Of a stretch of DNA of 64,000 bases, positions 1,543-36,564 are shown in pieces. The notes under the pieces were generated by a model that worked only from the letters and a program-made list of their open reading frames with translations, ran no database searches and was not told the origin of the DNA. Position numbers and translations under genes: made by a program. Origin of the DNA: Candidatus Firestoneibacteriota bacterium (GTDB lineage Bacteria > Oederibacteriota > D2-FULL-39-29 > JBBTED01); the NCBI GenBank assembly GCA_038042445.1, contig JBBTED010000018.1, positions 24,081-88,080 on the forward strand, written 5' to 3'. Position 1 is the first letter of the stretch. Each line of letters starts with the position of its first letter.

Positions 1543-3285
1543 ATGATTAATATTATTGTAAATAAATGGTTTGCAGGAAAAAATAATCAAAAATTTTATT
1601 ATATTCTATTCTTTGTGCTTTTCGGATTATTTTTTGTTTTTAATTTATTAAGTTTACCAAAAGAAATGGATGAGCGAGGTATGTTTGATGAGAATATTAG
1701 ATTTTTAGAATATAAAAATACTAATAATTTAAGTTTAGAAAAAGCATTTGAAGATTGGGATGCAATTATTGGTGAAAAAAGTCGTTCTTTATACATAACT
1801 ACATATATAACTGGTTCTCCTTTTTATTCACTAATCAGGTTTTATTTGTTGAAATTACCAATTCATCCAGTGGTAACTTTTAACATATTTAATTTAATTG
1901 TGGCAATTTTATTTTTCTATGCAGCGTATTTATTAATTAAATTACTTTTTGACAATATTATTGCTATTAAAAGTTTAATAATTATGCTTTCATTCTATGG
2001 TGTATATACTGTAACAAGATTTTCAGGCAGAGGATATATAGTTATAGGATTAGCATTTATTCTTTTTGGTTGTTATTTTATTTGGAAATCTATGCTTTCT
2101 GGAAAACAATACTATTTAATTTATGCTGGTATTTTTATGGGGCTCTCATGGACAGCAGGTAATCATATGACAAAATTGACTCCAGGCTTTTTAATAATCA
2201 CATCAATATTTTATACATTTAATTATTTTAAGCAGAATAATTTTAGTTTTAAAAATCTTTTAAAACTTTTTTTAAATTTCTTTTTTCTTGTTGGTTCATT
2301 TACCATAATAAGTGTTGTTATTATAAAAATTATGTCATATAAGTTCAATCTGGATTTTTCATCATTGTTATTACAGACAGGATTTATGAAAGACAGGGCA
2401 GTAGGTCCCGGTTCTAATGTGGTTGTTACTGAAATATTAAGACGTTTACGTTTATTTATATGTTTTCCTAAATTTAGCGATGTAATTCTCTGGTGGGATG
2501 AATTTTTTTATGGACACTCGTTAATACCAGAGTTTTTTATATCGTTTTTAATTCTATCAATATTTTATCTGAAGGAAAATTTTAAAATATATTTTTTTAG
2601 GTTTGTTTATATAACAATTTTTGCATTGTTGCCTTTTATATTTATTTTTACTCTATCAGAATGGGAAATACGGTATCAACTTATATTTTTGCCTTTTTTA
2701 GCTGTATTGATAGTATTTGGACTTAAATATTACTTTGAAGTTATAGCAGTTAAAATTGAAAACATTAGTGGCAAAACTTGCTATAAAATTTATAGAAGAA
2801 TTATATCAGGGATTATAATAATTGTTATTGCAATTATATATTCAAGCAAAATATATAATGTAGCTTTTGGTGATTATGCTAAATCATGGAATAATTCCTA
2901 TAATGGGCCTGGGCATAGGGCTACAGCAGATGCTTTAAATATTATGTATAAAAAATACGGTGAAAGCATTAAAACTATTACACTACTTCAAGATTTTATG
3001 TCTCCAGACGGTATGCTTGTATATCTTGGTTTTAATCTTGATCACAAGTATAAAATGTTAGGGGCTTGTGGTCCAACTACGGAGAATTCCATACCTAAGC
3101 TTTTTGATCAATATACAAAAGAAAACGGTAAAGTGTTTATTGTAGTAGCAGATGGTTGGCATTATGGAAGGCTTGTTGGATGGTATCCAAATATAAAATT
3201 GGAGTTGATAAAAAAAATAAAATTGCCAAAGGTAAGAAGTTTTCATGGAACAGGTTTAAAATTGTATTGTGTAAATGGAATTTAA
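1543..3285 (+). CDS. Paralog 2 of the tandem GT-C-like (ArnT/PMT-like topology) membrane protein family, 580 aa.
   Basis: It has an N-terminal TM, an ~80-aa loop, about 11 more TMs, and a ~130-aa C-terminal soluble domain. The last ~150 nt are more than 90% identical to paralog 1. Confidence 0.5.
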   Translation: MINIIVNKWFAGKNNQKFYYILFFVLFGLFFVFNLLSLPKEMDERGMFDENIRFLEYKNTNNLSLEKAFEDWDAIIGEKSRSLYITTYITGSPFYSLIRFYLLKLPIHPVVTFNIFNLIVAILFFYAAYLLIKLLFDNIIAIKSLIIMLSFYGVYTVTRFSGRGYIVIGLAFILFGCYFIWKSMLSGKQYYLIYAGIFMGLSWTAGNHMTKLTPGFLIITSIFYTFNYFKQNNFSFKNLLKLFLNFFFLVGSFTIISVVIIKIMSYKFNLDFSSLLLQTGFMKDRAVGPGSNVVVTEILRRLRLFICFPKFSDVILWWDEFFYGHSLIPEFFISFLILSIFYLKENFKIYFFRFVYITIFALLPFIFIFTLSEWEIRYQLIFLPFLAVLIVFGLKYYFEVIAVKIENISGKTCYKIYRRIISGIIIIVIAIIYSSKIYNVAFGDYAKSWNNSYNGPGHRATADALNIMYKKYGESIKTITLLQDFMSPDGMLVYLGFNLDHKYKMLGACGPTTENSIPKLFDQYTKENGKVFIVVADGWHYGRLVGWYPNIKLELIKKIKLPKVRSFHGTGLKLYCVNGI

Positions 3286-3289: not shown

Positions 3290-4981
3290 ATGAAGAATAA
3301 TAAAATTTATTATATTTTATTTTTTGTGCTTTTTGGTATTTTCTTTGTATTTAATTTATTTGGATCGCCTAAAGATAGGACAGACATTGCTTATCTTGAT
3401 ACAGGAGTTAGGGTTGTTGAATATCAAATTTGCAATAATTTAAGTTTGGCAGAAATACATAAAGTATGGCAGTTGGTTTCTGGCGATATGACTTATAAAG
3501 ATGGAGAATTTGGGCTTTATAAAGCCACTTTGTATCCATCTCCTCTTTATGCATTAGTGAGATTTTACCTATTGAAATTACCGATAGATTCAATGATAAC
3601 GTTTAACATATTTAACTTAATTGCAGCAATTTTGTTTTTCTTGGCAACGTATTTATTAATAAAATTACTTTTTGATAATGATACAGCAATTAAAAGTCTG
3701 CTAATTTTGCTTTCGTTTTATGGGGTATATACTGTAATGAGATTTGCAGGTCGTGGTTATTTGGTTATAGGGTTGGATCTTATTATTTTTGGGTGTTATT
3801 TTATCTGGAAGTCTATGATTTTAGAAAAACAACGTTATTTAATTTATGCAGGTATTTTTATGGGGTTGTCTTGGACAGTGGGTAATCATATGACGAGATT
3901 AACACCTGGATTTTTATTAGTCACATTGATATTTTATATTATGGATTATTTTAAACAAAATAATTTTTCAGTCAAAAATTGTTCAAAGCTTTTATTGAAC
4001 CTCTCAGTTTTTTCTGTTTTTTTTGTTGTTACAAGTGTTGTTATAATAAAAATTATATCATATAAATTTAACTTCGATTTTTATCCGCTATTATTTAATA
4101 CAGCATTTTTGAAAGATAGAGGGTTTAATATATCTCCAGTGATAGATATCTATGTGGTTTTTAGAAGACTACGGTTGTTTACAGGTTTATTTAAACTCAC
4201 CGATATTTATAGCGAACACGAAGAATTTTTGTATGGATATGCACTAATCCCTAATTTTTTTATGCCATTTTTAATTCTATCAATTTTTTATTTAAAAAGA
4301 AACTTTAAACTTAAGCCATTACAGTTTACTTATGTGTTAATTTTTGCTGCAATGCTTTTTATAGTTATGTTAATGTATCCGTTATGGGGAATACGATTTA
4401 CCATTATATTTTTACCATTTTGGGCATTGCTTGTATTTTTTGGTATTAAATATTATTTTGAAGTTTTAGCAATTAAAATTAAAAATAATAATTATAAAAA
4501 GATTGTGTCAGGCATTATAATAGTTGTTATGACAGTAATATATTTAAGTAGAATGTTCACCGTATTTTTTGGTGATTATGCTAAATCCTGGAATAATCCT
4601 CAATTCTTTGCCGGCCATAGATTTGCTGCAGATGCTTTGAGACCGATGTATAAAAAATACGATAAAACAATTACTTTATATAACGACTTTATGTATTCAA
4701 CTCTTTTGATCGCATATCTTGGTTTTAATCCAGATCATAAGTATAGGTCAATATCTGAGTGTTTGGATTTAAATGCAGAAGAATCACTGCCTAAACTTTT
4801 TGAAAAATACACAAAAGAGGGTGGAAAAGTTTTTGTTATTGTATCAGATGGTTGGCATTATGGTAGGCTTATTTCAACTTATCCAAATATCAAATTAGAG
4901 TTAATAAAAAAAATAAAATTGCCAAAATTAAGAAGTTTTCATGGGACTGGTTTAAAATTATATTGTGTAAATGGGATTTAA
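3290..4981 (+). CDS. Paralog 3 of the tandem GT-C-like membrane protein family.
   Basis: Same architecture as paralogs 1 and 2. The start is placed at the ATG at 3290 (MKNNKIYYILFF...), directly after the upstream stop. The track's 3275 start would overlap the previous gene. Confidence 0.5.
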   Translation: MKNNKIYYILFFVLFGIFFVFNLFGSPKDRTDIAYLDTGVRVVEYQICNNLSLAEIHKVWQLVSGDMTYKDGEFGLYKATLYPSPLYALVRFYLLKLPIDSMITFNIFNLIAAILFFLATYLLIKLLFDNDTAIKSLLILLSFYGVYTVMRFAGRGYLVIGLDLIIFGCYFIWKSMILEKQRYLIYAGIFMGLSWTVGNHMTRLTPGFLLVTLIFYIMDYFKQNNFSVKNCSKLLLNLSVFSVFFVVTSVVIIKIISYKFNFDFYPLLFNTAFLKDRGFNISPVIDIYVVFRRLRLFTGLFKLTDIYSEHEEFLYGYALIPNFFMPFLILSIFYLKRNFKLKPLQFTYVLIFAAMLFIVMLMYPLWGIRFTIIFLPFWALLVFFGIKYYFEVLAIKIKNNNYKKIVSGIIIVVMTVIYLSRMFTVFFGDYAKSWNNPQFFAGHRFAADALRPMYKKYDKTITLYNDFMYSTLLIAYLGFNPDHKYRSISECLDLNAEESLPKLFEKYTKEGGKVFVIVSDGWHYGRLISTYPNIKLELIKKIKLPKLRSFHGTGLKLYCVNGI

Positions 4982-4985: not shown

Positions 4986-6698
4986 ATGAAAAACACCAAG
5001 ATTTATTATATTTTATTTTTTGTTCTTTTCGCTATTTTCTTTATATTTAATCTATTTAAATCACCTAAAGATATGATTGAGCCTTGCTATTTTGATACAG
5101 CAATTAGGGTTGTCGAATATCAAATTTGCAATAACTTAAGTTTAGCAGAAATGGATAAAATATGGCGTTCGGTTTCTGGTTCTACTTCTATATATTCTAT
5201 AGATGGACAATATGGTTTATATACAACGACTTTATATGGAGCACCACTTTATTCTCTAATCAGGTTTTATCTTCTAAAACTTCCATTTCATCCTATGATA
5301 ACGTTTAATATTTTAAACTTAATTGTCGCAATTTTATTTTTCTATGCATCGTATTTATTAATAAAATTACTTTTTGATAATGATACAGCAATTAAAAGTT
5401 TGCTAATTTTGCTTTCGTTTTATGGGGTATATACTGTAACTAGATTTGCAGGCCGTGGTTATTTGGTTATAGGGTTAGCATTTATTCTTTTTGGGTGTTA
5501 TTTTATATGGAAGTCTATGATTTTAGAAAAACACCGTTATTTAATTTATGCTGGTATTTTTATGGGTCTTTCTTGGACAGCAGGTAATCTTATGTCGAGA
5601 TTAACACCTGGGTTTTTATTGGTCGCATTGATATTTTATATCGCGAATTATTTTAAACAAAATAATTTTTCAGTTAAAAATTGTTCAAAGCTTTTATTAA
5701 ATCTCTCAGTTTTTTCTATTTTTTTCGTTGTTACAAGTGTTGTTATAATAAAAATTATATCGTATAAATTCAATCTGGATTTTAATTCTCTACTGCTAAA
5801 CAAGAAATTTAGAATAGATGTGGCAGTAATTCCAATGGATTATGGGGGTGTTAATGCATTGCCAAGATTATTGCGTAGATTACGTTTGCTAACAGGTTTT
5901 ATTAACTATGGTGATTATAGAGATCATACCGAAGAATTTCTCTATGGATATGCACTAATACCCAATTTTTTTGTACCATTTTTATGTTTATCAATTTTTT
6001 ATTTAAAGAAGAATTTTAAACTTAAAAAATTTCAGTTTATTTATGTATTAATTTTTGCTGCATCGCTTTTTGTAATTATGTTTGTTACCCCACAATGGTC
6101 AATACGATATACCATTGTATTTTTACCATTTTGGGCATTGCTTGTATTTTTGGGTATAAAATATTATTTTGAAGTTTTAGCAATTAAGATTAAAAATGAA
6201 ATTTATAGAAAGATTGTATCAGGAATTATAATAATTGTTATAGCAATAATATACTTAAGCAAAATACATAATGTATTTTTTGGTGATTATGCTAAATCAT
6301 GGAATAATTCTCAATTTTTTGCCGGTCATAGATTTGCTACAGATTCATTAGTCCCAATGCGTAAAAAATATAATAAAACCATTACTTTATATAATGATTT
6401 TATGTTTTCAGATCAATTGATTGCATATCTTGATTTTAGTCCAGACCATAAGTACAAGTCAATATCTTCTTGTTTAGATTTAAAGGCAGAAGAATCAGAG
6501 TCATTGCCAAAACTTTTTGAAAAATACACAAAAGAATGCGGAAAAGTCTTTGTTATAATTTCAGATGGTTGGCATTATGGAAGACTTGTTTCAGCTTATC
6601 CAAATATAAAATTAGAATTAATAAAAAAAATAAAATTACCAAAGCTAAGAAGTTTTCATGGAACAGGTTTAAAATTATATTGTGTTAATGGAATTTAA
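4986..6698 (+). CDS. Paralog 4 of the tandem GT-C-like membrane protein family.
   Basis: Same architecture. The start is placed at the ATG at 4986 (MKNTKIYYILFF...). The 5' and 3' ends are conserved with the other paralogs at nucleotide level. Confidence 0.5.
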   Translation: MKNTKIYYILFFVLFAIFFIFNLFKSPKDMIEPCYFDTAIRVVEYQICNNLSLAEMDKIWRSVSGSTSIYSIDGQYGLYTTTLYGAPLYSLIRFYLLKLPFHPMITFNILNLIVAILFFYASYLLIKLLFDNDTAIKSLLILLSFYGVYTVTRFAGRGYLVIGLAFILFGCYFIWKSMILEKHRYLIYAGIFMGLSWTAGNLMSRLTPGFLLVALIFYIANYFKQNNFSVKNCSKLLLNLSVFSIFFVVTSVVIIKIISYKFNLDFNSLLLNKKFRIDVAVIPMDYGGVNALPRLLRRLRLLTGFINYGDYRDHTEEFLYGYALIPNFFVPFLCLSIFYLKKNFKLKKFQFIYVLIFAASLFVIMFVTPQWSIRYTIVFLPFWALLVFLGIKYYFEVLAIKIKNEIYRKIVSGIIIIVIAIIYLSKIHNVFFGDYAKSWNNSQFFAGHRFATDSLVPMRKKYNKTITLYNDFMFSDQLIAYLDFSPDHKYKSISSCLDLKAEESESLPKLFEKYTKECGKVFVIISDGWHYGRLVSAYPNIKLELIKKIKLPKLRSFHGTGLKLYCVNGI

Positions 6699-6850: not shown

Positions 6851-7168
6851 ATGAAAACAAAAGATTATGAAATAGCAAAACAGTTAAAAGAACAATTGTC
6901 CTTTATTGTGTCCATAATTGATTTTAGGGTTTTTGGTTCAAGGGTTCGGGGTGATGAAAATAAATTCTCTGATATGGACATTTTTATAGAAGTTGAACAG
7001 ATTAATAAACAACTGAAAAAAAAAATCAGAAATATAATATGGGAAGTAGGATTTGAAAATTCTGTTTATGTATCTCCTCTTATCTTTACCCGCTATGAGA
7101 TTGAAGATTCTCCGTTAAGAGTTTCTCCTATAGTAAAAAATATTCATGAAGAAGGAGTTAAAATATGA
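6851..7168 (+). CDS. Minimal nucleotidyltransferase (MNT) domain protein, the antitoxin-like partner of an MNT-HEPN toxin-antitoxin pair.
   Basis: It carries the motif RVFGSRVRGDENKFSDMDIFIEV, which matches the GS-x9-13-DxD signature of the Pol-beta-type nucleotidyltransferase fold. It is 105 aa long and overlaps the downstream HEPN ORF by 4 nt. Confidence 0.7.
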   Translation: MKTKDYEIAKQLKEQLSFIVSIIDFRVFGSRVRGDENKFSDMDIFIEVEQINKQLKKKIRNIIWEVGFENSVYVSPLIFTRYEIEDSPLRVSPIVKNIHEEGVKI

Positions 7169-7505
7169 CAGATAGAAACACACTTTTTTTCTATCGTTTT
7201 AAACAAGCAGAAGAGACTCTTTCAGATGCCAAAAAGATGCTGGAAAGTGGTTTAAGTCCCAGATCTATTACCAATCGTGCGTATTATTCTGTGTTTTATG
7301 CAATATTGGCTCTATTTTTGATAGAGAATTTGTGAAGACAGGAAAGATTGATAAACATTATTCGGAAATACTTCATGATATTTTTGATGCAAGACTGGAA
7401 AGTGATTATAAGGAATGTATTGAAATAACGATTGATGATGTGACAGAACATGTTAAACTTGCAGAGGAATTTCTAAAAATCATTAAAGAATTTACAGAAA
7501 AATAA
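7165..7505 (+). pseudogene. HEPN-domain toxin-like gene, disrupted by a frameshift.
   Basis: The N-terminal 56 codons (MTDRNTLFFYRFKQAEETLSDAKKMLESGLSPRSITNRAYYSVFYAILALF...) end at a TGA at 7333-7335. The reading continues in another frame (...KTGKIDKHYSEILHDIFDARLESDYKECIEITIDDVTEHVKLAEEFLKIIKEFTEK) to the stop at 7505. The shift lies at a T5 run near 7318. Confidence 0.6.
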
Positions 7506-7570
7506 AATTGCCTAAAAAAGAAGTTTTCATGGGACTAGTTTAAAATTATATTGTATAAATGGAATTTAAA
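7500..7570 (+). pseudogene. A ~70-bp 3'-terminal remnant of a further GT-C-like paralog (KIKLPK..FHGTGLKLYC.NGI*), carrying an internal 1-nt deletion.
   Basis: The sequence aaaataaaattgcctaaaaaagaagttttcatgggactagtttaaaattatattgtataaatggaatttaa aligns with the last ~70 nt of each paralog but is frameshifted. Nothing upstream of it belongs to a paralog. Confidence 0.6.
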
Positions 7571-7579: not shown

Positions 7580-9085
7580 ATGAATTATTTTGATGTAGTA
7601 TTATTTTCACCACCATCGCGTATGATTAATCACTACAGGCCTCCTGTGGGTTTATTGTATATTGGTGGATATTTGACACATAAGGGATTGAAAGTAAAAA
7701 TTATTGATATTCCTTTAAAGGAACAGATAAGAACAAAAGAATTTTTTGATAATGTTGATAAAGTTATTGACGATGTGCATCAAAAAATGATTAGTGAATT
7801 TAAGCAGATAAAGACTAAAGTAGTAGGAATTTCTTGTTATACTCCTGAGTATTTTGAAGTTGTAAAATTGGCAAAAGACATAAAAAAGATAGATAATTCA
7901 GTAAAAATCATAGTTGGTGGAATTCACTCAACTTTTTACCCGCAGGATTTTTTTGATGAAGATACAGGTGTTGACATTTGTGTTCTTGGCGAAGGCGAAT
8001 TAACAATGTATGACTTATGCCAACATATTCTAAATAATGACAAAAAAGATCTAAATGAAATTAATGGAATAGCATATTTTGATAGTAGTTCGCGGAAAGT
8101 TGTTTGTGCACCAAAAAGAATTTTATCTGAAAATCTGGATGATATTTCATTTCCTGACTATAGTTTGATAGATATGGAATATTATACAAATGCAAATCCG
8201 TATGCAATAAGAGGTTGTTTTTTGAGATCAATGTATTTGTTGGCAACACGTGGATGTCCTTCGCAATGTACATTTTGTGTCGCAAAAAAATTACGGGAAT
8301 TTACAAGTTCCAGCAGGGTTCGTAGTGCTAAAAGTTTAATAAGAGAACTTGTTGAATTGAAAGAAAAATATTCTATAGATTCCTTTTATTTTATAGATGA
8401 TTTATTTACTATTAATAAAGATAATGTTAAAGAATTTTGTAGTATGTTGAAAACCAATAAATTGAATTTGCTTTGGGGGTGTTCTTCAAAAGTTGTTACT
8501 CTTAATGAAGATGTGATAAAAGCTATGTCAGAATCAGGATGTGTTCAGATAGATTTTGGTGTTGAACGGGGTTCAGATAAAGCTCTGCGGTTACTAAAAA
8601 AAGGCCAAAATGTATCAATTATAAAAAACATTTTTGGCTATTGTCATACTTATGGTATTAGAACTTTTGCAAATATGTTGACAAATCTTCCAGAGGAAAC
8701 AGAGGAAGATCTTAATGATATTCTTAAATTATTAGATGAAATAAATTCTGAGATAGTTAGTATAAATATATTTACTCCATATCCAGGTACAGAAATATAT
8801 GATAATTCAAAATTCAAATACAAAAAAGAAGAGTATGCTTATTTAACAAGGGATATTACCTGGCTTATTAAGACATATCCTGAAAGGTTTAGATATTCTT
8901 CTCATAATATTAATTTAGAAGAATGGGTTGTCCAACATAATAAACAATATAATAAAATTTTTCCAAATCTTAAATTTTATTTAAGTGGAAAGTATTTAAA
9001 TGTTCTGTTAAAATCAAAAGAAAAGATGAATTACTTAAAGCAATTTAATTTGTTATTTAGGGAGTTTTTAAATCAAAAATTTTGA
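7580..9085 (+). CDS. B12-binding radical SAM protein (class B radical SAM).
   Basis: It has an N-terminal cobalamin-binding-like domain, followed by the radical SAM motif CPSQCTFC (CxxxCxxC). It is 501 aa long. Confidence 0.8.
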   Translation: MNYFDVVLFSPPSRMINHYRPPVGLLYIGGYLTHKGLKVKIIDIPLKEQIRTKEFFDNVDKVIDDVHQKMISEFKQIKTKVVGISCYTPEYFEVVKLAKDIKKIDNSVKIIVGGIHSTFYPQDFFDEDTGVDICVLGEGELTMYDLCQHILNNDKKDLNEINGIAYFDSSSRKVVCAPKRILSENLDDISFPDYSLIDMEYYTNANPYAIRGCFLRSMYLLATRGCPSQCTFCVAKKLREFTSSSRVRSAKSLIRELVELKEKYSIDSFYFIDDLFTINKDNVKEFCSMLKTNKLNLLWGCSSKVVTLNEDVIKAMSESGCVQIDFGVERGSDKALRLLKKGQNVSIIKNIFGYCHTYGIRTFANMLTNLPEETEEDLNDILKLLDEINSEIVSINIFTPYPGTEIYDNSKFKYKKEEYAYLTRDITWLIKTYPERFRYSSHNINLEEWVVQHNKQYNKIFPNLKFYLSGKYLNVLLKSKEKMNYLKQFNLLFREFLNQKF

Positions 9086-9957
9086 ACATTATGCTTTGTA
9101 AATTATGTAGTGGTGATGCCCAAAAAATATTTGATGCTAATAATATTCATGGGCGACATATATTTTCTGTAGATGAAAAATTTGAAGTTTATAGATGCAA
9201 TAAGTGTAATGTGGTTTTTATAGCTAATGTTCTTATTGATTCAGCATACTACGGAAAATATTATCCTAAAAATTATTATAATGAACTATATGGTAAGGTG
9301 TTACAATATATAATAGAACAAATAGGTAATGTAGCAATAAGATCCAGAGAAAAACAAATTTTAAGCAATTTAAGTTTGAATGATGGAGTAAAAGCTAAAA
9401 TTTTAGATGTAGGTTGTGGTAGTGGAGGGTTTTTAAGTGGTATAAGTGACAACAATTTTGAAAAATATGGAATAGAAATCAATCCTGAAGGTTATAAAAT
9501 ATGTAAGGATAAAGGTATAAAGGTATACAATCAAGATATTAAAAATATAAGTTTTGGAGATAAATTTTTTGATGTTATTACTTTATGGCATGTGATTGAA
9601 CATATTGCTACGCCTTATGAAATAATATCAGAAATAAAAAGAATATTAAAAGATGATGGAGTATTGGTGATTACTATGCCTAATACTGACAGTTTTGGGT
9701 TTAAATACGGGCAAAAATTTTGGTTTCATTTAGATGCTCCAAGGCATTTAATTTTGTATAATATGAAAAGTTTGACTCAGCTTATGAGCAAAGCAGGGTT
9801 TAGTATTTTAAAAAAGAAGAATATGTTTTTTGAATTTCCTCTTGATTTGTTTTGGTCAATAAGGAAGTCTTGGGTAAGATATTTTATTTATCCATTTTAT
9901 CCTATGTTTAAAATCTTATCAGAAGAAACAATATTATTGGTTTGTAAAAAACAATAA
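9082..9957 (+). CDS. Class I SAM-dependent methyltransferase with an N-terminal Cys4 zinc ribbon.
   Basis: The N-terminus has CKLCSG...CNKCN. Motif I is LDVGCGSGGF. Its start overlaps the stop of the upstream radical SAM gene (ATGA). Confidence 0.75.
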   Translation: MNIMLCKLCSGDAQKIFDANNIHGRHIFSVDEKFEVYRCNKCNVVFIANVLIDSAYYGKYYPKNYYNELYGKVLQYIIEQIGNVAIRSREKQILSNLSLNDGVKAKILDVGCGSGGFLSGISDNNFEKYGIEINPEGYKICKDKGIKVYNQDIKNISFGDKFFDVITLWHVIEHIATPYEIISEIKRILKDDGVLVITMPNTDSFGFKYGQKFWFHLDAPRHLILYNMKSLTQLMSKAGFSILKKKNMFFEFPLDLFWSIRKSWVRYFIYPFYPMFKILSEETILLVCKKQ

Positions 9958-9975
9958 ATGGAGATATAATATTAT

Positions 9976-11559
9976 ATGGATATACTTTTAATTAATCCTT
10001 ATTATAGTCAACGCAAAGAATATCATTCCTTTATTGTTCCTGCTCCACCATTAGCCCTTTTATATCTTACAGGTTATTTAAGGAAATATAATGTGGATTG
10101 TAAAATATGTGAATTTGGAGTTTTTGATCCAAGCGATGCAATTAATATTGGAGAAAGAGTTAGGTTTGGAATTTCAGATGAAGAGATTAAAAAAATCATT
10201 AAAAAAGAAAATCCTAAAATAGTCGGCATAACAAGTATGTATTCTATATATTATGCTGATGTAGTTGATATTGCAAAAACTATAAAGAAAATTAACAATG
10301 ATATTAAGATTGTGCTTGGTGGTAATCATGCTTCTTCGTATTATCCATATATTTTAAAAAATCAAAATATTGATATAGTAGTTATTGGTGAAGGCGAAAG
10401 AGCATTTTTAGATTTATGTAATGTTTTGCTCAATAATGGTGCATTAAAAAATATTAAAGGTATAGCCTATAAAGAGAATGGTAATATAATAAAAAATGAA
10501 CCAGCTGAAGTATTTTCAAATTTAGATGAAATACCATTTCCTGCAAGAGATAGTATAGATTTTAAAAAATACATTCCACCTAGACATATGGTTCCATATT
10601 TGATGCGTTATCCAGCAGCAACTATTATTACAAGTAGAGGATGTCCAGGTAAATGTGTTTATTGTACAGTTAAAGCAGTATGGGGAAGAACTTGGCGAGG
10701 AAGAGGTGCTAAAAATGTTGTTGATGAGATTGAAATGCTTGTCCATGATTATGGTATAAAAGAAATTGTTGTTTTAGATGATAGTGCTAGTATTAATAAG
10801 CAAAGATGGAGTGATATATGTGATGAAATTATTAATAGGAAAATAGATATAAAATGGAGCACACCTAATGGTATAGCACATTGGACTCTTGATAAAAATA
10901 TACTTGATAAGATGAAAAAAGCCGGGTGTTATAGGGTTACTTTTGGCATAGAATCAGGTAATGCAGAAACTAGAAAATTTTTGGGTAAGCCGTATAGTCT
11001 TCAGCAGGCAAAAGAGATGTTAAAATATGCCAATAAAATTGGAATGTGGACAATTTGCACCAATATTTTAGGGTTTCCTTATGAAAAAGAAGATTCAATT
11101 CGCGACACAATTAATTTTGCAAAAAAATGCGGGACAGATTTTGCGACATTTTACCTTTTAATTCCACAGCCTACATCTGATGTATACGGTTATTTTAAAA
11201 AAGAAAATCTCTTAAATCTTGATGCTTTTTTTGAAAATGAAAATCCAGATTGGTATGAATTTGAAAAAATTAACTATATTTTGAGTGAAACAGGGACAGA
11301 TACAATGTTTTTTAAAAAAGAAGAACTTAGAAGGTTGCAAAAAAATGCTTATCGCTCTTTTATAATATACAGATTTCTATCTTATGCTTTTGTTCCATGG
11401 AAAATATTGCATAAATTAAATAGCTGGGAGGATTTTCTTTATTGCATGAAATTATTTAAAAATGGAGCATTAATTTTGTTTAGGCTATTAAATCCATTTA
11501 AAATAGGAACTGTGCATTTTTTATACAAAAAAGGCCACGTAAAAAAAGATACCAAATAA
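9976..11559 (+). CDS. Second B12-binding radical SAM protein.
   Basis: Motif TSRGCPGKCVYC. The domain order matches 7580..9085, but the sequence is divergent. Confidence 0.8.
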   Translation: MDILLINPYYSQRKEYHSFIVPAPPLALLYLTGYLRKYNVDCKICEFGVFDPSDAINIGERVRFGISDEEIKKIIKKENPKIVGITSMYSIYYADVVDIAKTIKKINNDIKIVLGGNHASSYYPYILKNQNIDIVVIGEGERAFLDLCNVLLNNGALKNIKGIAYKENGNIIKNEPAEVFSNLDEIPFPARDSIDFKKYIPPRHMVPYLMRYPAATIITSRGCPGKCVYCTVKAVWGRTWRGRGAKNVVDEIEMLVHDYGIKEIVVLDDSASINKQRWSDICDEIINRKIDIKWSTPNGIAHWTLDKNILDKMKKAGCYRVTFGIESGNAETRKFLGKPYSLQQAKEMLKYANKIGMWTICTNILGFPYEKEDSIRDTINFAKKCGTDFATFYLLIPQPTSDVYGYFKKENLLNLDAFFENENPDWYEFEKINYILSETGTDTMFFKKEELRRLQKNAYRSFIIYRFLSYAFVPWKILHKLNSWEDFLYCMKLFKNGALILFRLLNPFKIGTVHFLYKKGHVKKDTK

Positions 11560-11572
11560 TTTAATTTAAAAT

Positions 11573-14500
11573 ATGAAAAATTTGCTTAAAAAAATAAATA
11601 GTTATTTTTTTTGTGCATTTATTTTTGCAATTTTACTTGCAGCTGTATTATTACCGTATTATTCTAATGGTAATATTATTTTAGGTGGTGAAGGAAATTA
11701 TGTTTTAGATTTTAATGTGCTTCTTGGAAAATTAAATTATACCTGGCAAAATTGGGGTGTAGGTTTTCCAGCTACCAGTTCAAATTATAATTATTTTATT
11801 GTATTCTTTTTTGCATTTCTTCAAAAAATAATTCCAGATATTCAAGTTGTAAATTTCATTTTTATATTTATTTTGTATTTTTTGCCATTTTTTTCCGCTT
11901 TGTTGGTTTGTCGAGTTTTAAATTTAAAACCATTCTTGTCATTTTTAATTTCGTATTTCTATGTTGTTAATCCTTTTTCGTTATACTACTTAGGAACATG
12001 GGTAAATCATTGGAATTCCTTAGTTTTGTTTATTATACCACTATATTTCTTTATTATATTTAAATATTATGAAAAAAACAAATTGCTATTTTTATTTTTT
12101 GGATTGAATTCTGCGCTTTGTGCTTTTACAAATGCAAATCCTCCATTGATGGTAGTAAATCAAATTTCTATTATTATATCACTTGTTTTTACTGGTATTT
12201 ATAAAGACCCGAATTTTTCATTTAATAAGTTTGCAAAAAAATATTTTGTTGTTTTAACGTCATTTTTTCTTTTTAATATTTGGTGGATTTTGAACTGGAT
12301 GAGTGTAATGGTCGATATCCCACAGATGTATTCTACAGGATTTGCATTAGGATGGGCTGATTCGTTTAAAATTTTTCCTAACCTAATATGGAGAAATTTT
12401 ACATTTACATCTTTATTCCCTATTAATTTTTCTGTAGATTTTGTCATAAATTTATACAGTTCTAACTTTAGTTTTTTAATAGTAACAATCCCTATTATAA
12501 TTGTTATATATTTTGTTATGAAATATAAATCATATTCTCCAGTTGTTAAATTTCTTCTTGTTTGTATACTTATTACACTATTTTTAATGAAGGGTATATT
12601 GCCACCATTTGGATTTATATATAAGTTTATGATTATATATATCCCATTTTTTAGTGTTTTTAAAACTCCAATAGAAAAATGGGGAGTTCTATATCTTTTT
12701 CTTTTTATTTTGTTGTTCATAATTCTTTTGAAAGATAATGATAAGAAAAAGGAATATAAATTTTTGTTAGGATTATTTTTGTTTTATCTGTCCTATGTGA
12801 GTTTTCCTTTTGTAACAAGTAAATTTATTTCAGACTATAAAATGTTTGATGGTAACATTGCGACACGTAAATATATTGATAAAAAAGAATATAAAGATTT
12901 GAGGAAAAACCTTAGTAATGATCCAGTTGATTATAGAGTATTTAGTCTCCCTGGAAGTTTAAATTATCAGATAGCACTTACAATGCCCAACGACAAATTT
13001 TATACAGGAATGGATCCTGTTTTAAATAGTATAAACAGACAGTTTATTGCTCAATACAGTAATACTTTAATAAATAACTTTGATGTATTGTACGATAATA
13101 TTTCAAGTGAAAAATTTTCTCGTTTATTAGCATTATATAATATTGGTGCAATTGTTTTAAATAGAGATATACTTCCTTGGTTTGGTTTTAAAGAAAAAGA
13201 AGAAATGCAGGATTTGGAAAATATATTTAATAATGAAAAAATATATAAAAAAGAGCAATTAATTCCAGGAACAGTTTCTTTGTATAAATTACAAAATGAG
13301 CATTTTTTGCCTCATATATATTCTTCTGCATCGATTGTGCCAATTGTAGGAAAAAATCGTTCTTTGTCATCATTAACTTATACTACTTATCTTGATAGCT
13401 ATCCTGCAATTGCTTTTACATCTCAAGTCTTAGAAAAAGGTAATTTTGAAAAAATCATTAAAGATAATATATTGTTTGTAAATTCACAACTTTCGGATTT
13501 AGCACTTGATTTTGTCGATAAAAATAAATCTTTGCAATTATTGTTGGATGAACAAGGGCAAGCTGAGTTTAAAATAAAACAAAGCGCTATTTATGAAGTA
13601 TTGGTACAATTTAAAAGTTCGGTTTCAGATAAAAATGATAAAACATTAATTTTAATAGTTGATAATAATATATTGCCATTACCTGGTAATTGTTTCCAAA
13701 ATCAGCAATGGATAAGATTTGAAAGTGTTTCTCTAAATAAAGGAAAACATAGGATCAGAGTATTTTTCAGAAATGACAGAGGAAAAATCGAAAGCATTAA
13801 AATAGTTCCCCAAAAAATGATGCAACAAATATTGAATGAAACTGATGTATCTTTTAAAAATAATGAGATCCAAACGACCTATTTATTTTATAAAGATGAA
13901 ACATATTTTCAGGAGCAAAATGATAAATATAGATGGAATATTTTAAAACCCAGTAATTATAAAATAAAAATGATACTTTCTCCTAAGGCAGAGTTTATTA
14001 AACAAAAAGATACTGAAAAAGATACATTTTGGCATCTTACAGATTTTAATGAAAATATTTTGAATGCTGATATGCAAAAGCATAAAAGCATTGGAACGAA
14101 TAGTTCTAATGTGTTTTCTGAAAATGATGAAAATATACCATTATCTGTAAATCTTGATTGGAATCATAATAATGAGAAGTCTGAAAAAATAATACAGAAA
14201 TCTTTTAAAAATTTAAAACTAAACAATTTGCCGTATTTTTCTATGATTTTCAAAAAGGATGATTCAGTAAAAGATGTTGCAATTAAATTTTTTGTAAGTA
14301 AATATAAAAATGGATTTTTAAAGAAAAGTTTTACTTTGGAAAATCAGTATTCGAATCATTTTTTTATATCTTCTACTCAAACTTTTATTGCTGATATTTA
14401 CAAAGAAGCAGTAAAAGTATTGAGATTGCCTGTAGATGCAGACTGTTTTTTGATGAAAATAGAGATTAGCGTAATTCGAGTTAAAAAGGGGGAATATAAG

Positions 14501-15604
14501 ATATTGAGTCCTCACAAGTTTGAAATTTATAATGCTGAATTTCATACAGAACTGCCTTTTATAATTGAGAATTCTCCACTTGATGAGAAAAAATTGCAAG
14601 GTAAAGGTATTGATACATTATCTGAAATTTCGTTCGGCAAAGATAAAATCTTAAAATTGCAGTTAGAAACCAAGTCGTATGTAGATTTAAAAACTGATTC
14701 TCAACTTAGAATGATTTTTAAAAAACCAGAAGAGAAAATAAAAAGTAGAGAAAATTTAAAAAATCTTAGATTGTTACTTGATTTGGATTTTGATGGAGAT
14801 GGTAAAAGTGACAAAAAGGCTGAATATGAAGTTCCTATTATGCTTATTCAATCTGATTATGTAATGATTTATTTTGACGTTTATGATGCAGTAAAATCTG
14901 AATTTCCCGGTAAAAAAAATTATCATTTGAATGCATTAAAAATCTCTAAAAATTCCGATATTGATAAAAAGTGGTATAATACACCAATAGTAGTGAGTCG
15001 TACATGGTTAAAAAAGAAACTAATTGATTGTAAGGATTGGAATATGAGCGCCCCAATTTTTGAATTAAATAATAAAAAGTATTATTTAAAGAATATGAAC
15101 ATGAAAAAAATGGAAAATGGAAAATTGTATTTGGAAATTGATTCTATTTATTTTCCAAAAGGGGAACATTTGTTTTCTACAATTGTTAATTCTCAATGGC
15201 AAGTGAATTTTGCAGAAATTGAACCTGTTAGTATAGATGTTGAAAATAAATGGAAAAATAGTGATAATTTGCATTTACCAAAAATCTCTTTTAAAAAGAT
15301 CAATACTACGAAATATGTTGTTGATGTTGAGACCAGTAAACCTTGGACATTGGTATTTAGTGAGGCATATCATCCAAAATGGGAAGCATTCATAAATGGT
15401 GAAACAGTATCTTCTAAAAATCATTTTGTGGTTAATGGATATGCAAATGGATTTTGTATTGACAAAACAGGCAAATATCAAATTGTTATTGAGTATGCAA
15501 CTCAGAAATATTTTAATATAGGTTTAATTGTTTCTGCTATTACATTATTAAGTTGTGTTGGCTATTTGGTCGTAAGAAAACGCAGTGGCAAGTTATTGCT
15601 ATGA
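11573..15604 (+). CDS. Very large (1343 aa) polytopic membrane protein with a YfhO-like / GT-C-like topology. It has ~400 aa of N-terminal TM helices, a large extracytoplasmic domain, and one C-terminal TM.
   Basis: This is a hydrophobicity pattern only. The C-terminal helix is IGLIVSAITLLSCVGYLVVRK. No catalytic motif was recognised. Confidence 0.45.
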   Translation: MKNLLKKINSYFFCAFIFAILLAAVLLPYYSNGNIILGGEGNYVLDFNVLLGKLNYTWQNWGVGFPATSSNYNYFIVFFFAFLQKIIPDIQVVNFIFIFILYFLPFFSALLVCRVLNLKPFLSFLISYFYVVNPFSLYYLGTWVNHWNSLVLFIIPLYFFIIFKYYEKNKLLFLFFGLNSALCAFTNANPPLMVVNQISIIISLVFTGIYKDPNFSFNKFAKKYFVVLTSFFLFNIWWILNWMSVMVDIPQMYSTGFALGWADSFKIFPNLIWRNFTFTSLFPINFSVDFVINLYSSNFSFLIVTIPIIIVIYFVMKYKSYSPVVKFLLVCILITLFLMKGILPPFGFIYKFMIIYIPFFSVFKTPIEKWGVLYLFLFILLFIILLKDNDKKKEYKFLLGLFLFYLSYVSFPFVTSKFISDYKMFDGNIATRKYIDKKEYKDLRKNLSNDPVDYRVFSLPGSLNYQIALTMPNDKFYTGMDPVLNSINRQFIAQYSNTLINNFDVLYDNISSEKFSRLLALYNIGAIVLNRDILPWFGFKEKEEMQDLENIFNNEKIYKKEQLIPGTVSLYKLQNEHFLPHIYSSASIVPIVGKNRSLSSLTYTTYLDSYPAIAFTSQVLEKGNFEKIIKDNILFVNSQLSDLALDFVDKNKSLQLLLDEQGQAEFKIKQSAIYEVLVQFKSSVSDKNDKTLILIVDNNILPLPGNCFQNQQWIRFESVSLNKGKHRIRVFFRNDRGKIESIKIVPQKMMQQILNETDVSFKNNEIQTTYLFYKDETYFQEQNDKYRWNILKPSNYKIKMILSPKAEFIKQKDTEKDTFWHLTDFNENILNADMQKHKSIGTNSSNVFSENDENIPLSVNLDWNHNNEKSEKIIQKSFKNLKLNNLPYFSMIFKKDDSVKDVAIKFFVSKYKNGFLKKSFTLENQYSNHFFISSTQTFIADIYKEAVKVLRLPVDADCFLMKIEISVIRVKKGEYKILSPHKFEIYNAEFHTELPFIIENSPLDEKKLQGKGIDTLSEISFGKDKILKLQLETKSYVDLKTDSQLRMIFKKPEEKIKSRENLKNLRLLLDLDFDGDGKSDKKAEYEVPIMLIQSDYVMIYFDVYDAVKSEFPGKKNYHLNALKISKNSDIDKKWYNTPIVVSRTWLKKKLIDCKDWNMSAPIFELNNKKYYLKNMNMKKMENGKLYLEIDSIYFPKGEHLFSTIVNSQWQVNFAEIEPVSIDVENKWKNSDNLHLPKISFKKINTTKYVVDVETSKPWTLVFSEAYHPKWEAFINGETVSSKNHFVVNGYANGFCIDKTGKYQIVIEYATQKYFNIGLIVSAITLLSCVGYLVVRKRSGKLLL

Positions 15605-16281
15605 AAAATTTTGATAAAAATATTTTTTTAAATGGCAAGTTAATTTATTTATTAATTGCTGACATAATAATTTCCATTTTTTCATGGAGTTTGGCAATTT
15701 ATTTATATAATATTTTTGGTGAAAAAACGCTGACTTTTGAAGTTCTGACTAGACATTCTTATATTATTCTAATTGTAAGCGGTGTTTTGGGATATATATT
15801 AACATTGGGAGGATTTAGAGTTGTTTCCTTAAAAAAGATGCAAGATGTTTTTTTGTATAAAAGTAGGATTTTAATTGCTATAATTTTGTATTGTAGTATT
15901 ATAGTTTTATTTTTTTGTTTTACACCTCCACATTCTATTAGGGCATGGATAGTTTTACTGGTTTATCTGACATCTATTTCTGTTTTTACTTTTATATGGC
16001 ATAAATGGGGAAAATATATATATCAATTGTTTTGTGTTACTTTCTTGGAACAGGATTTTAAAAGATATGTTCCTCCTATTTTATTTGAAAGATTTCCCAA
16101 AGGAAAAGAAAATTCCGGAAAAATTTTTATTGGAATTTTTATTGTACTGATTTTATTTTGTACATTATTGCTAATGTTTCAAAATAAGGAATTGGCTGAT
16201 TATGTAGATGATTATGCCTATTTTTCATTGGTTATCGGTGTTGGAATAGAATTATATAGGGGTAGAAAACATTCTAAATGA
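15601..16281 (+). CDS. Small polytopic membrane protein of unknown function.
   Basis: Start is assigned to the ATG at 15601, which overlaps the upstream stop (ATGA). It has several TM helices. Confidence 0.4.
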   Translation: MKNFDKNIFLNGKLIYLLIADIIISIFSWSLAIYLYNIFGEKTLTFEVLTRHSYIILIVSGVLGYILTLGGFRVVSLKKMQDVFLYKSRILIAIILYCSIIVLFFCFTPPHSIRAWIVLLVYLTSISVFTFIWHKWGKYIYQLFCVTFLEQDFKRYVPPILFERFPKGKENSGKIFIGIFIVLILFCTLLLMFQNKELADYVDDYAYFSLVIGVGIELYRGRKHSK

Positions 16282-17807
16282 TTAAATATTTCTATTTGCC
16301 ACTTCTATTATTTGTCGTAATCGCAATTTTTCAAAAAATTTTTAATAAGTCCAATAGTGTAAATCATAGTTTGTCATCTGCGGAGGCTTTGCAATTACAA
16401 AATAAATTATTTTATATATTGTGTGCATTGTATATTGTTATTTTTGGAGTATTAAGTATTTTGAGATATGTTTCACTGCATAGTACTTTTTGTGATATGG
16501 GAATTTTTGAAAACACAATATGGAAGATAGCATATAATAAGGATTTTTATTTGATTTCATTTGGACATTTTTGGCCAATTTTACTTGTTTATGCATTAAT
16601 TTATAAAATATTTTCATCAGGTATAACTCTTCTTTTGCTTCAGACAATTGCAATTACTGTAGGTGCATATCCACTATATAAAATAGCTCAAAAGCATTTA
16701 AAGGGGGTATTCCCAATAGTAATTGTTTTGTCATACTTCTTGTATTTTGGAGTCGAATATAATAATTTATTTGATTTTCATCCAGACCATCTTTTTATGA
16801 CACTATTACTTTTCGGGTTTTATTTTCTGGAAGAAAAAAACATCAAAGGTTTTATGGTTATTTCTGTTTTAGCTTTATTTATTAAGGAGCCTTTGCTTTT
16901 GTCCCTTAGTTTGTTTGGTTTATATGCAGGAATAAAACACAAAAATTACAAAGAAGGGTTTTTTATTTTTGTTATAGCTATACTGTTTTTTATTGTAGTT
17001 ACGCAAATTACTATACCTTTTTATTTTAAAGGTAAGTATCCTTTTGCCAGCAGTGCAATTTCTTCTAAATTTAACTTAGGTTTTTTAGAAATTATCAAAA
17101 GTGTTATTTTGCATCCATCCAGTTTGATAGTAGAATTGTTTTCTTGTAAAGAAAAATTAATTTATCTTTTTTGCATATTTGCTCCACTATTGTTTGTTCC
17201 ATTGCTTTCACCTTTAGCGCTTTTGCCAACCTTGCCTATGATATTTATAGCTATTTTATCTCAGGCATATAATTATTATTCTTTGCAAAGTCATTATTCT
17301 GCAAGTATTATTCCAGGCCTATTTGTGGCATTTATTTATGGATTAAAAAAAATAGAAAAAGTAAAATGGCTTGCTGTTTATGTTGTAAGTTTTTCAATAT
17401 ATTTTAATGTGGTATTAAGTTCTTCTCCTTCGTCATTATTATTCTGGGAAGGTAAGGATTGGATATATTCAAAGAATGCGTATTTGACTACTAATAGAGA
17501 TAAAATGATAAATGTTGCAATAAAAAAATATATTCCTGTGGATTCAAAAATCAGTGTTACTACACAAAATTCAATTAATAGCGGTAAATTAGCTAAAAGG
17601 GACAAATATTTATTATTTCCTCAATCACAAGATTTTAATAAAAGTGATTATGTAATATTAGATTTAAAAAGGGCGCTTTTTGCCGTGGATAGAACTGATG
17701 GGGAAAAAATTGTTAATGATATTTTAAAAACACGAAAAATACTTTTTGAAGAAGACGGTTTTTATATTTTGACAAAAAAATGTGGTTTGGTGGAAAAAGA
17801 TGACTGA
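16278..17807 (+). CDS. Polytopic membrane protein (about 12 TMs) with a C-terminal soluble domain. It resembles DUF2079/GT-C-like membrane proteins.
   Basis: Hydrophobicity pattern. It is co-directional with the cluster and overlaps it. Confidence 0.35.
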   Translation: MIKYFYLPLLLFVVIAIFQKIFNKSNSVNHSLSSAEALQLQNKLFYILCALYIVIFGVLSILRYVSLHSTFCDMGIFENTIWKIAYNKDFYLISFGHFWPILLVYALIYKIFSSGITLLLLQTIAITVGAYPLYKIAQKHLKGVFPIVIVLSYFLYFGVEYNNLFDFHPDHLFMTLLLFGFYFLEEKNIKGFMVISVLALFIKEPLLLSLSLFGLYAGIKHKNYKEGFFIFVIAILFFIVVTQITIPFYFKGKYPFASSAISSKFNLGFLEIIKSVILHPSSLIVELFSCKEKLIYLFCIFAPLLFVPLLSPLALLPTLPMIFIAILSQAYNYYSLQSHYSASIIPGLFVAFIYGLKKIEKVKWLAVYVVSFSIYFNVVLSSSPSSLLFWEGKDWIYSKNAYLTTNRDKMINVAIKKYIPVDSKISVTTQNSINSGKLAKRDKYLLFPQSQDFNKSDYVILDLKRALFAVDRTDGEKIVNDILKTRKILFEEDGFYILTKKCGLVEKDD

Positions 17808-17890
17808 AAGGAGTACTGGAAGTGCAAACCATAGTTTTAAAAATGAAGCAATTGACAGAAGAATGATTTGGTTATATAATTTAGAGATTA

Positions 17891-27027: not shown

Positions 27028-27061
27028 GTTTTTAGTTTAATATAATTAAGGAGGATTAAAA

Positions 27062-28213: not shown

Positions 28214-28219
28214 TGAAAT

Positions 28220-28238
28220 CCCCCTTTTGCAAAGGGGG
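28220..28238. terminator. C5/G5 hairpin (CCCCCTTTTGCAAAGGGGG) between metK and ahcY.
   Basis: It has a perfect 8-bp stem. Nearly identical copies are at 34425 and 44408. Confidence 0.4.
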
Positions 28239-28261
28239 AATAAGAGAAAATAGGAGAATAA

Positions 28262-29521
<1,260 letters not shown>

Positions 29522-36457: not shown

Positions 36458-36501
36458 ATAACAGGTTAGCGGTTCTAAAAATATCCAATGTTATTGTAGC
36501 C

Positions 36502-36564
36502 GCAGAGCGAAGCTCTGCTAAAAAAGTAGTTGCAAGGTTAAAGACAGCAAAGCTTACGCTTTGC
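36502..36564 (+). promoter_or_regulatory. Two intercistronic hairpins, GCAGAGC-GAA-GCTCTGC and GCAAAGC-TTAC-GCTTTGC, between the OMP gene and the giant-protein gene.
   Basis: Both have perfect 7-bp stems. They lie upstream of the probable start of the giant CDS at 36589. Confidence 0.4.

Follow-up and report, generated by a model that had tools for sequence, protein, structure and literature searches.

Class-B radical S-adenosylmethionine (SAM) enzymes, which depend on cobalamin, are known from the pathways of antibiotics, cofactors, lipids and peptides that are made on ribosomes and modified after translation (RiPPs), as well as from protein modification. Among them, GenK and GenD1 of gentamicin biosynthesis and Fom3, which acts on CMP-hydroxyethylphosphonate, are methylases of actinomycete secondary metabolism that work at an unactivated carbon of carbohydrate or nucleotide-activated substrates. 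The words sugar, glycan and polysaccharide are absent from a 2026 review of the B12 radical SAM enzymes. At the cell envelope, the GtrABC and CsbB/GtcA/YfhO systems use a glycosyltransferase of the GT-C type to decorate, outside the membrane, a surface glycopolymer with a single sugar taken from a lipid-linked donor (PMC8035078), and in the systems composed of a polyprenyl-phosphoribose synthase, a MATE protein and a GT136 enzyme the donor is altered by auxiliary epimerases before transfer (PMC11127046). Here, a 64-kb stretch of contig JBBTED010000018.1 (termed the window, at its full length) was found to carry two class-B radical SAM genes, R1 and R2, flanking a methyltransferase gene (MT) and followed by the gene for a 1343-amino-acid membrane protein (BIG) that resembles the mycobacterial GT-C enzyme AftD. 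On balance it appears probable, if not strongly so, that these genes make up the part of a cell-surface glycan biosynthesis locus that serves tailoring and transfer, with R1, MT and R2 feeding the AftD-like GT-C protein.

The DNA derives from an 88-kb contig of a Hainich groundwater metagenome and belongs to the bin Candidatus Firestonebacteria (GCA_964358285.1), and the gene order recurs in assemblies of this organism that were made independently (ENA, NCBI and Logan). Six co-oriented open reading frames (ORFs) occupy window positions 7580–17807, all on the plus strand, where an earlier sequence-only reading of this DNA had placed them. R1 (7580–9085; 501 amino acids; motif CPSQCTFC) belongs to an unnamed subfamily that has orthologs in related loci, and R2 (9976–11559; 527 amino acids; motif CPGKCVYC) to a large unnamed family that crosses phyla. 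Between them lies MT (9091–9957), encoding a class I SAM methyltransferase of the Methyltransf_23 family, also with orthologs elsewhere, and behind them follow BIG (11573–15604), a gene for a 226-amino-acid polytopic membrane protein without a family (p226; 15601–16281; an ORF of 226 or 242 amino acids) and a gene for a 509-amino-acid DUF2079 membrane protein (16278–17807). That two B12 radical SAM enzymes with these motifs flank a class I methyltransferase, as the earlier reading had it, was borne out by Pfam, and the Zn-ribbon that it had assigned to the methyltransferase is present as an N-terminal CxxC...CxxC pair. The two further polytopic membrane proteins that it had seen downstream have about six (p226) and at least 10 (DUF2079) predicted transmembrane (TM) helices.

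The genes are tightly packed, with spacings of 5, 18, 13, −4 and −4 nucleotides. The sequence-only reading had all three enzyme genes overlapping translationally, which they do not: R1 stops at 9085 and the methyltransferase ATG lies at 9091, so that the alternative TTG at 9082 alone would give an overlap, and 18 nucleotides separate the end of MT at 9957 from the start of R2 at 9976. The R2–BIG gap is 13 nucleotides. Genuine overlaps of 4 nucleotides are found at 15601/15604, between BIG and p226, and at 16278/16281, between p226 and the DUF2079 gene.

The relationship between R2 and GT-C-type membrane proteins was studied across genomes. The scan took one genome per species, and ORFs were called in all loci, searched with the window proteins and clustered; loci are labelled L0xx and BIG homologs P0xxx. 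R2 relatives of 39–62% identity were found in 39 loci, all from metagenome-assembled genomes (MAGs) or single-cell genomes, assigned to Omnitrophota, Planctomycetia, Verrucomicrobiota, Victivallales, Spirochaetia, Deltaproteobacteria, Bdellovibrionales, Nitrospirae, Patescibacteria, Gammaproteobacteria, Rhodospirillales, Woesearchaeota and Methanoperedens. With identities of 40–67%, the R2 family is represented in no fewer than eight phyla of bacteria and in two archaeal lineages. A polytopic protein of the GT-C type, counted at 500 or more amino acids and seven or more TM helices, stood within two genes of R2 on either side in 23 of the 34 loci other than the window, against 8.7 expected for a control, a non-GT-C gene drawn at random from these loci (2.6-fold). 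Directly downstream, at the first or second gene after R2, such a protein was present in 19 of the 34 loci against 4.4 expected (4.3-fold). An association of the R2 family with a membrane protein of the GT-C type is seen across many phyla.

The family to which the GT-C partner belongs changes among the loci. Homologs of BIG were found in about 20 loci, nearly always one or two genes downstream of R2 and often with a third B12 radical SAM gene in between. In Patescibacteria and Gammaproteobacteria the position is filled by proteins with PMT_2 and TPR domains (L029, L031, L032, L034 and L047), and in L026 by a DUF6311 protein. In seven loci (L005, L006, L009, L016, L018, L019 and L033) an ortholog of the methyltransferase is found immediately upstream of R2 or almost so, and R1 orthologs scoring 442–742 bits are present in eight (L006, L009, L010, L012, L018, L025, L031 and L034). 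When BIG was taken as the starting point, homolog P0140 was found with a GT2 glycosyltransferase, R2, MT and a B12 radical SAM gene directly upstream. Some Omnitrophota loci go further: in L006/L009, L010/L012, L026 and L037, a single glycan locus has between three and six genes for B12 radical SAM enzymes, together with SPASM radical SAM genes. The conserved module, whose family boundaries are clear, consists of R2 beside a GT-C protein, usually joined by another B12 radical SAM enzyme and the Zn-ribbon methyltransferase, and has about 40 genomic examples from uncultivated bacteria and archaea.

The commonest neighbours in R2 loci are GT4 and GT2 glycosyltransferases, NAD-dependent epimerases/dehydratases, DegT aminotransferase-type proteins, AsnB-type amidotransferases and ABC transporters of the Wzm/Wzt type; UDP-GlcNAc 2-epimerase (WecB-like), carbamoyltransferase, acetyltransferase and SPASM radical SAM genes also occur. 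Because the surrounding genes are glycan genes, both in the related loci and on the window's own contig, a role in a cell-surface polymer is preferred over RiPP maturation, and that part of the sequence-only reading was supported. Its other half, an unusual lipid, was not, as lipid-synthesis genes were absent from every locus.

The structure of BIG was explored next. The protein has about 10 hydrophobic helices at the N terminus and one at the C terminus, and is laid out as a membrane/GT-C domain (residues ~ 1–600), a variable extracytoplasmic insert, a conserved C-terminal domain and a final TM helix. Among its 55 homologs at E ≤ 1e-5, two parts are conserved, the first ~ 600 residues and, together with the final TM helix, a C-terminal domain of ~ 130 residues; the middle is variable. 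No Pfam or NCBIfam family was matched, the BIG profile gave zero matches to PDB sequences even at E ≤ 10, and Pfam scans of 43 family members returned scattered weak matches only. A structural model of residues 1–600 was obtained with a mean predicted local distance difference test score (pLDDT) of 88.9 and a predicted template-modelling score (pTM) of 0.90. The best Foldseek match of this model in the PDB was mycobacterial AftD (6W98; E 6e-7; query-normalized TM-score (TMq) 0.59), followed by STT3, PglB, AglB, AftA, DPY19 and ArnT, and the top 19 matches were all GT-C enzymes. Since AftD is its closest match, BIG is assigned, on this predicted structure, a GT-C glycosyltransferase fold.

The comparison with AftD (PF11847) extends to the overall plan, in that both proteins start with a polytopic GT-C domain, have a very large extracytoplasmic portion and carry membrane helices at the C terminus. 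Three residues do not vary among the 43 BIG family members: E40, which lies shortly after TM1, K369 and D481. Mutagenesis of AftD identified K39, D41, E251, K361 and D474 as essential (bioRxiv 10.1101/2019.12.22.885152); the BIG residues fall near D41, K361 and D474 by sequence position only. PF11847 was not matched by BIG or its 42 closest homologs, but distant homologs adjoining R2 pass its cut-off of 26 bits (L030, 35.9; L044, 40.8; L035, 29.3; L022, 33.3), and the remote BIG matches P0163, P0165, P0167, P0171 and P0175 also carry the domain. Unlike AftD, with which it shares 13% identity, BIG has no Pfam match, its extracytoplasmic insert holds no recognisable carbohydrate-binding module, and its host is a non-actinobacterial member of the Firestonebacteria whose locus has no arabinan or decaprenyl-phosphoarabinose genes. 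The sequence-only reading had called BIG a YfhO-like GT-C membrane protein. The GT-C half agrees with the model and the fold search, and the YfhO half fell away, as Pfam YfhO (PF09586) was matched neither by full-length BIG at E ≤ 0.01 nor by its C-terminal 233 residues at E ≤ 1. A genuine YfhO protein (41.1 bits) does follow R2 in L017, and it has a 28-bit local similarity to the C-terminal domain of BIG.

The class-B architecture of R1 and R2 was confirmed. The B12-binding domain (PF02310; cut-off 32.1 bits) was matched by residues 21–145 of R1 (74.0 bits) and 23–146 of R2 (68.5 bits), and the Radical_SAM domain (PF04055; cut-off 29.5 bits) by both proteins (75.1 and 102.2 bits). Use of cobalamin is predicted; we know of no universal sequence motif for base-off cobalamin binding in class B, and no cob or btu genes were present among the genes of the window. 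The methyltransferase matched Methyltransf_23 at 94.9 bits, and its best PDB matches were anonymous structural-genomics methyltransferases that are uninformative as to subtype.

Comparison with curated NCBIfam models placed neither radical SAM protein in a described family. The best matches of R1, to ApyD and BchE, both scored ~ 167 bits, the cut-offs being 750 and 481, and the best match of R2 was the Sden_1168 P-methyltransferase family at 190 bits against 575. HpnJ was among the top three matches of both (159 bits for R1 and 154 for R2; cut-off 577), and AprD4 was matched at 72–78 bits against a cut-off of 500. No curated cut-off was reached by R1 or R2 for BchE, HpnJ, HpnR, PhpK/Sden_1168, ApyD, the RiPP C-methyltransferase, the ladderane-lipid radical SAM enzyme, the methyl-coenzyme M reductase (MCR) glutamine methylase, BzaD, AprD4 or TIGR04295, and the same was true of five further B12 radical SAM proteins from related loci, for any NCBIfam model. 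As no family cut-off is reached, R1 and R2 are not regarded as housekeeping enzymes; a BchE-like housekeeping assignment with no conserved tie to membrane proteins, which would have run counter to the sequence-only reading, is at odds both with these low scores and with the link kept in many phyla. The kinship to HpnR-type or other lipid-modifying enzymes that the reading had raised came down to weak similarities to HpnR and the ladderane-type model, below cut-off. R1 and R2 score ~ 179 bits against each other and are taken for that reason as distinct subfamilies. Among 8000 candidates scored, 1940 R2 homologs were found at E ≤ 1e-20; the best 120 are 52–67% identical over the full length, and their source names read 'radical SAM protein' at best or carry a wrong 'BchE' label.

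An AlphaFold model of R2, built with 53 homologs (pLDDT 90.4; pTM 0.88), matched the folds of TsrM, MgmA (the MCR glutamine methylase), AprD4, OxsB, CysS and TokK at TMq 0.56–0.64 and 16–20% identity, aligning over 430–500 columns with TsrM, MgmA, OxsB, CysS and TokK. GenK, GenD1 and Fom3 share the two-domain class-B architecture with R1 and R2, a likeness drawn by description only; unlike them, the window module lies in envelope glycan loci of uncultivated phyla. A C-terminal amphipathic helix in R1 or R2 would have hinted at a lipid-linked substrate, but a hydrophobic-moment scan for one gave no distinctive signal.

One interpretation of these data is the following pathway, for which we infer the chemistry, the substrate and the use of cobalamin. 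R1, MT and R2 would modify a sugar or small activated alcohol on the cytoplasmic side of the membrane. The substrate would probably be carrier-bound, either linked to polyprenyl phosphate or nucleotide-linked just before loading. The likeliest chemistry would be methylation of an unactivated carbon by the B12 radical SAM enzymes together with O- or N-methylation by the class I enzyme; C-methylation is favoured because the B12 domain matches are canonical, most characterised enzymes with such a domain are methylases, and the loci are rich in methyltransferases. The modified lipid-linked donor would then be flipped across the membrane, and the AftD-like GT-C protein would transfer it to a surface glycopolymer at the outer face, with its large extracytoplasmic domain holding the acceptor. 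The DUF2079 protein and the PMT_2-like paralogs encoded upstream may add further residues that depend on lipid-linked donors. By analogy, such a mechanism would follow the logic of the GtrABC, CsbB/GtcA/YfhO and GT136 systems and of HpnJ/Cds: auxiliary epimerases modify a lipid-linked sugar before GT-C transfer in three-component systems (PMC11127046), and the radical SAM proteins HpnJ and Cds have been proposed to remodel a lipid-linked sugar (PMC13459092). A likeness to the multi-component glycosylation systems is also seen in many related R2 loci, where a GT2 of ~ 300–350 amino acids lies just upstream of R2 (L018, L020, L022, L027, L035, L036, L044 and L071), and in L005, L030 and L071, where small proteins with three to four TM helices follow BIG. 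The proposed modification of the donor by B12 radical SAM enzymes and a methyltransferase is the feature of the window for which no description was found in the literature on those systems.

Several observations weigh against a pathway in which R1, MT and R2 feed the AftD-like protein. Its evidence base consists of MAGs and gene context. The loci are not phylogenetically independent, as several pairs share an architecture and about 17 distinct architectures show the adjacency. About one third of the R2 loci have no GT-C protein within two genes (L021, L023/L046, L038, L040/L042, L041, L043 and L045), and P0151 (L070), the only full-length BIG homolog, at 29% identity, stands without R2 or another B12 radical SAM gene, having instead a SPASM radical SAM gene, two methyltransferase genes and a GT2 gene upstream. 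No GT2 or phosphoribosyltransferase-type donor synthase lies between the contig's NUDIX gene and position 17807, and the window operon holds no recognisable flippase of the GtrA, MATE or GtcA type, differing in both respects from the multi-component systems; the nearest membrane-anchored GT2 is 30 kb away (48364–49317). Finally, the fold search cannot separate methylases (TsrM, MgmA, TokK and CysS) from non-methylases (AprD4 and OxsB), and C-methylation as the chemistry, which the sequence-only reading had put forward, was not borne out by a comparison that ranks the two alike. The same gaps fit an explanation by mere co-location in a generic polysaccharide locus, where R1, MT and R2 would tailor a nucleotide sugar or a finished polymer independently and the AftD-like protein would transfer an unrelated residue, or act as a polymerase or ligase. 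All of the loci are crowded glycan loci with many co-occurring families, the loci without an adjacent GT-C protein and the R2-less BIG homolog of L070 are what co-location would predict, and so is an operon that lacks a lipid-sugar synthase. The within-locus control speaks against it, however, with its 2.6-fold excess of adjacency and 4.3-fold excess directly downstream, as do the persistence of the adjacency through a swap among four GT-C families, across bacteria and archaea, and the few nucleotides between R2 and BIG in the window. Co-location is considered rather improbable.

A locus of the same type in which R1 and/or R2 are not methylases is somewhat better placed, though still unlikely. 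In that case, the radical SAM enzymes would carry out a ring contraction to a carbocycle, in the manner of HpnJ and Cds, or a 1,2-diol dehydration, in the manner of AprD4, and the class I enzyme would be the sole methyl donor. AprD4 (6FD2), a 1,2-diol dehydratase that acts on an amino sugar, is the best match of both proteins among solved structures by sequence (70 bits for R1 and 57 for R2) and has the highest TM-score in the R2 fold search (TMq 0.64). AprD3 reportedly pairs with AprD4, and genes of the short-chain dehydrogenase/epimerase type adjoin R2 in L010, L012 and L032. HpnJ ranks high in both NCBIfam comparisons, is BchE-like with the same B12-domain and radical SAM architecture, and like Cds is proposed to act on a sugar carried by a membrane lipid (PMC13459092). 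These matches all lie far below the family cut-offs, however, with HpnJ at 154–159 bits against 577. The likeness to AprD4 lies mostly in the radical SAM core, whereas the PF02310 matches are canonical and strong (74 and 68 bits), as in the characterised enzymes that are mostly methylases. Hopanoid and glycerol dialkyl glycerol tetraether genes are absent, and the carrier here would be a transient polyprenyl rather than a structural lipid. The tight pairing with a class I methyltransferase and the many methyltransferases of the loci also fit a methylation theme. Tailoring of a phosphonate, either Fom3-like C-methylation of CMP-hydroxyethylphosphonate or P-methylation in the manner of PhpK/Sden_1168, with the product then attached to a glycan, draws on the best NCBIfam match of R2, on a score for PhpK, and on the phosphonate-type genes found, in whole or in part, directly upstream in the most window-like loci (L005, L071 and L030) and in L024 and L027. 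For the window this was rejected and is very improbable: no phosphoenolpyruvate (PEP) mutase, phosphonopyruvate decarboxylase or other phosphonate gene was found in the 64 kb or in the 3 kb upstream, about 29 of the 34 R2 loci have no such genes, and the P-methylase scores reach one third of the cut-off. It stays a candidate for L005, L071, L024 and L027. Hardly probable at all is tailoring of a membrane lipid (methylation or cross-linking of the hopanoid, ladderane or tetraether type) or RiPP maturation, to which the weak similarities to the HpnR, HpnJ, ladderane-type 'lipid biosynthesis B12 radical SAM', ApyD and RiPP C-methyltransferase models would point. None of these models is reached at its cut-off, and in the window locus and the conserved neighbourhoods of the 34 loci there were no squalene, hopene, fatty-acid or isoprenoid-lipid genes and no RiPP precursor peptide, peptidase, transporter or RiPP recognition element partner. 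The conserved partners are glycosyltransferases and sugar-nucleotide enzymes, and both readings were rejected for want of partner genes.

The phosphonate-type genes of the related loci form a set drawn from a CTP-transferase/PEP-mutase fusion, phosphonopyruvate decarboxylase, an iron-containing alcohol dehydrogenase, an NTP-transferase and a CDP-alcohol phosphotransferase; it was found in L005 (168–7613), L024 and L027 and in part in L071 (1–3058) and L030. We take this set to mirror Fom1, Fom2 and FomC, so that five related loci would resemble the Fom3 pathway in having such genes beside R2. In L024 and L030, a Phosphodiest and PAPS_reduct fusion protein of 757–759 amino acids is encoded directly upstream of R2. 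These observations suggest phosphonate-decorated glycans in loci of the L005, L071, L024, L027 and L030 type.

The combination is real and conserved, brings together enzyme classes that are known, and is itself undescribed; no curated family was found for R1, R2 or BIG. No paper was found that links radical SAM enzymes to AftD- or YfhO-type transferases, and this module did not turn up in a literature search that paired B12 radical SAM enzymes with O-antigen, polysaccharide or GT-C; the radical SAM protein of the Campylobacter HS:19 capsule is unrelated. A bolder and more doubtful proposal, put forward tentatively, is that R1, MT and R2 make up a widespread and undescribed pathway that remodels a carrier-linked sugar, by C-methylation at an unactivated carbon or a carbocycle-forming rearrangement, before GT-C export to the envelope. 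The surface glycans of Omnitrophota, Patescibacteria, DPANN archaea, Firestonebacteria and others would then bear sugars modified in a new way, as a class of its own, and class-B radical SAM enzymes would have their first role in envelope polysaccharide assembly. If the coupling to the GT-C protein is true, uncultivated organisms bear surface sugars with radical-installed modifications that are uncatalogued in glycan chemistry, and the module offers new enzymes for C–H functionalisation of carbohydrates together with a testable marker of how diverse the envelopes of candidate phyla are. Should the coupling be wrong, what remains is an ordinary locus for a polysaccharide in which tailoring genes are unusually numerous.

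The two membrane proteins behind BIG were also compared with known families. p226 has no Pfam or NCBIfam match, and a weak homolog occupies the same position in L025; its role may, speculatively, be that of an accessory protein or of a flippase. The last protein of the operon matched DUF2079 (PF09852) over residues 63–471 at 198.1 bits against a cut-off of 28.2, with a further weak match to the AZOBR_p60025 'cell surface glycopolymer formation' family. DUF2079 genes are also present in the R2 loci L005, L025 and L028, and no literature was found under that family name.

Upstream of R1 lies the paralog array that the sequence-only reading had noted, consisting of four gene copies and a degenerate 3′ remnant, all on the plus strand. 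Paralog 1 (1–1522), a divergent PMT_2-type GT-C membrane protein, starts ~ 169 nucleotides before the window and is 563 amino acids long in full on the contig. Paralog 2 (1543–3285; 580 amino acids) has about nine TM helices, and paralogs 3 (3290–4981; 563 amino acids) and 4 (4986–6698; 570 amino acids) follow, the latter with a weak PMT_2 match (E 0.0034) below the cut-off. Identity among the four is 61–69%. The family is a near-orphan, with three clusters among 5.8 billion proteins and 16 matches, mostly fragments, among 1.84 billion representatives, and its profiles gave zero matches to PDB sequences even at E ≤ 10. The paralogs are taken as GT-C-type since their distant relatives score Pfam PMT_2 above the cut-off. 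The locus therefore comprises six GT-C-type proteins around a cytoplasmic tailoring trio, a count that includes the DUF2079 protein, which we take to belong to the GT-C clan. Genes for a NUDIX protein, a DegT protein and an epimerase/dehydratase precede the array on the contig.

Between the array and R1, on the plus strand, an MNT-type nucleotidyltransferase gene (NTP_transf_2; 6851–7168) stands before a HEPN gene that is broken into two ORFs, which encode 56 and 57 amino acids (7165–7335 and 7332–7505), both identified with Pfam and NCBIfam; the split is identical in independent assemblies. The pair is probably an inserted, decayed type VII toxin–antitoxin system, and it is outside the glycan pathway. 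Between the HEPN gene and R1, at 7505–7567 on the plus strand, the final ~ 20 codons of a gene of the paralog array survive in degenerate form (KLPK..F.G..L.LYC.NGI*), as recognised by direct reading against the paralog C termini. The position of this remnant just after the cassette suggests displacement of a fifth paralog by the cassette, and an array that formerly reached R1 directly.

The first 18 kb of the window, which hold the whole envelope locus, have a GC content of 25–28%, against 30–39% in the rest, a pattern typical of horizontally exchanged surface-polysaccharide loci. A promoter and terminator scan was swamped by the AT-rich background (108 sites against 85 expected). The sole notable site was a 12/12 sigma-70-type match, TTGACA-17-TATAAT (17852–17880), directly 3′ of the DUF2079 stop codon, which precedes an unrelated phosphotransferase system/GH57 block and marks the start of that block.

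The membrane-anchored GT2 that lies at a distance from the operon has two to three C-terminal TM helices and an ATG at 48364; a longer ORF call from 48283 overlaps a tRNA-Ala gene (48268–48343). It could be a polyprenyl-phosphate sugar synthase. A class I methyltransferase gene follows just after it on the opposite strand.

Elsewhere in the window, 8–11 kb downstream of the locus, genes for a WecG/TagA-type glycosyltransferase, SAM synthetase (MetK) and S-adenosylhomocysteine hydrolase (AhcY) stand in a row (26260–29521); the presence of SAM-recycling genes near a locus that would have a high SAM demand may be coincidence. A 1977-amino-acid protein (36454–42387) has no more than faint fn3 and Pur_ac_phosph_N matches and a weak CHU_C match, and upstream of it are encoded a 470-amino-acid protein without a family and a sigma-54 two-component pair. 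Further along, a Peptidase_M50 gene is directly followed by a radical SAM/SPASM gene (55766–57692), with an ABC-2 transporter pair on the opposite strand (53986–55516). The peptidase and the radical SAM/SPASM protein are possibly a peptide-maturation pair, separate from the glycan locus.

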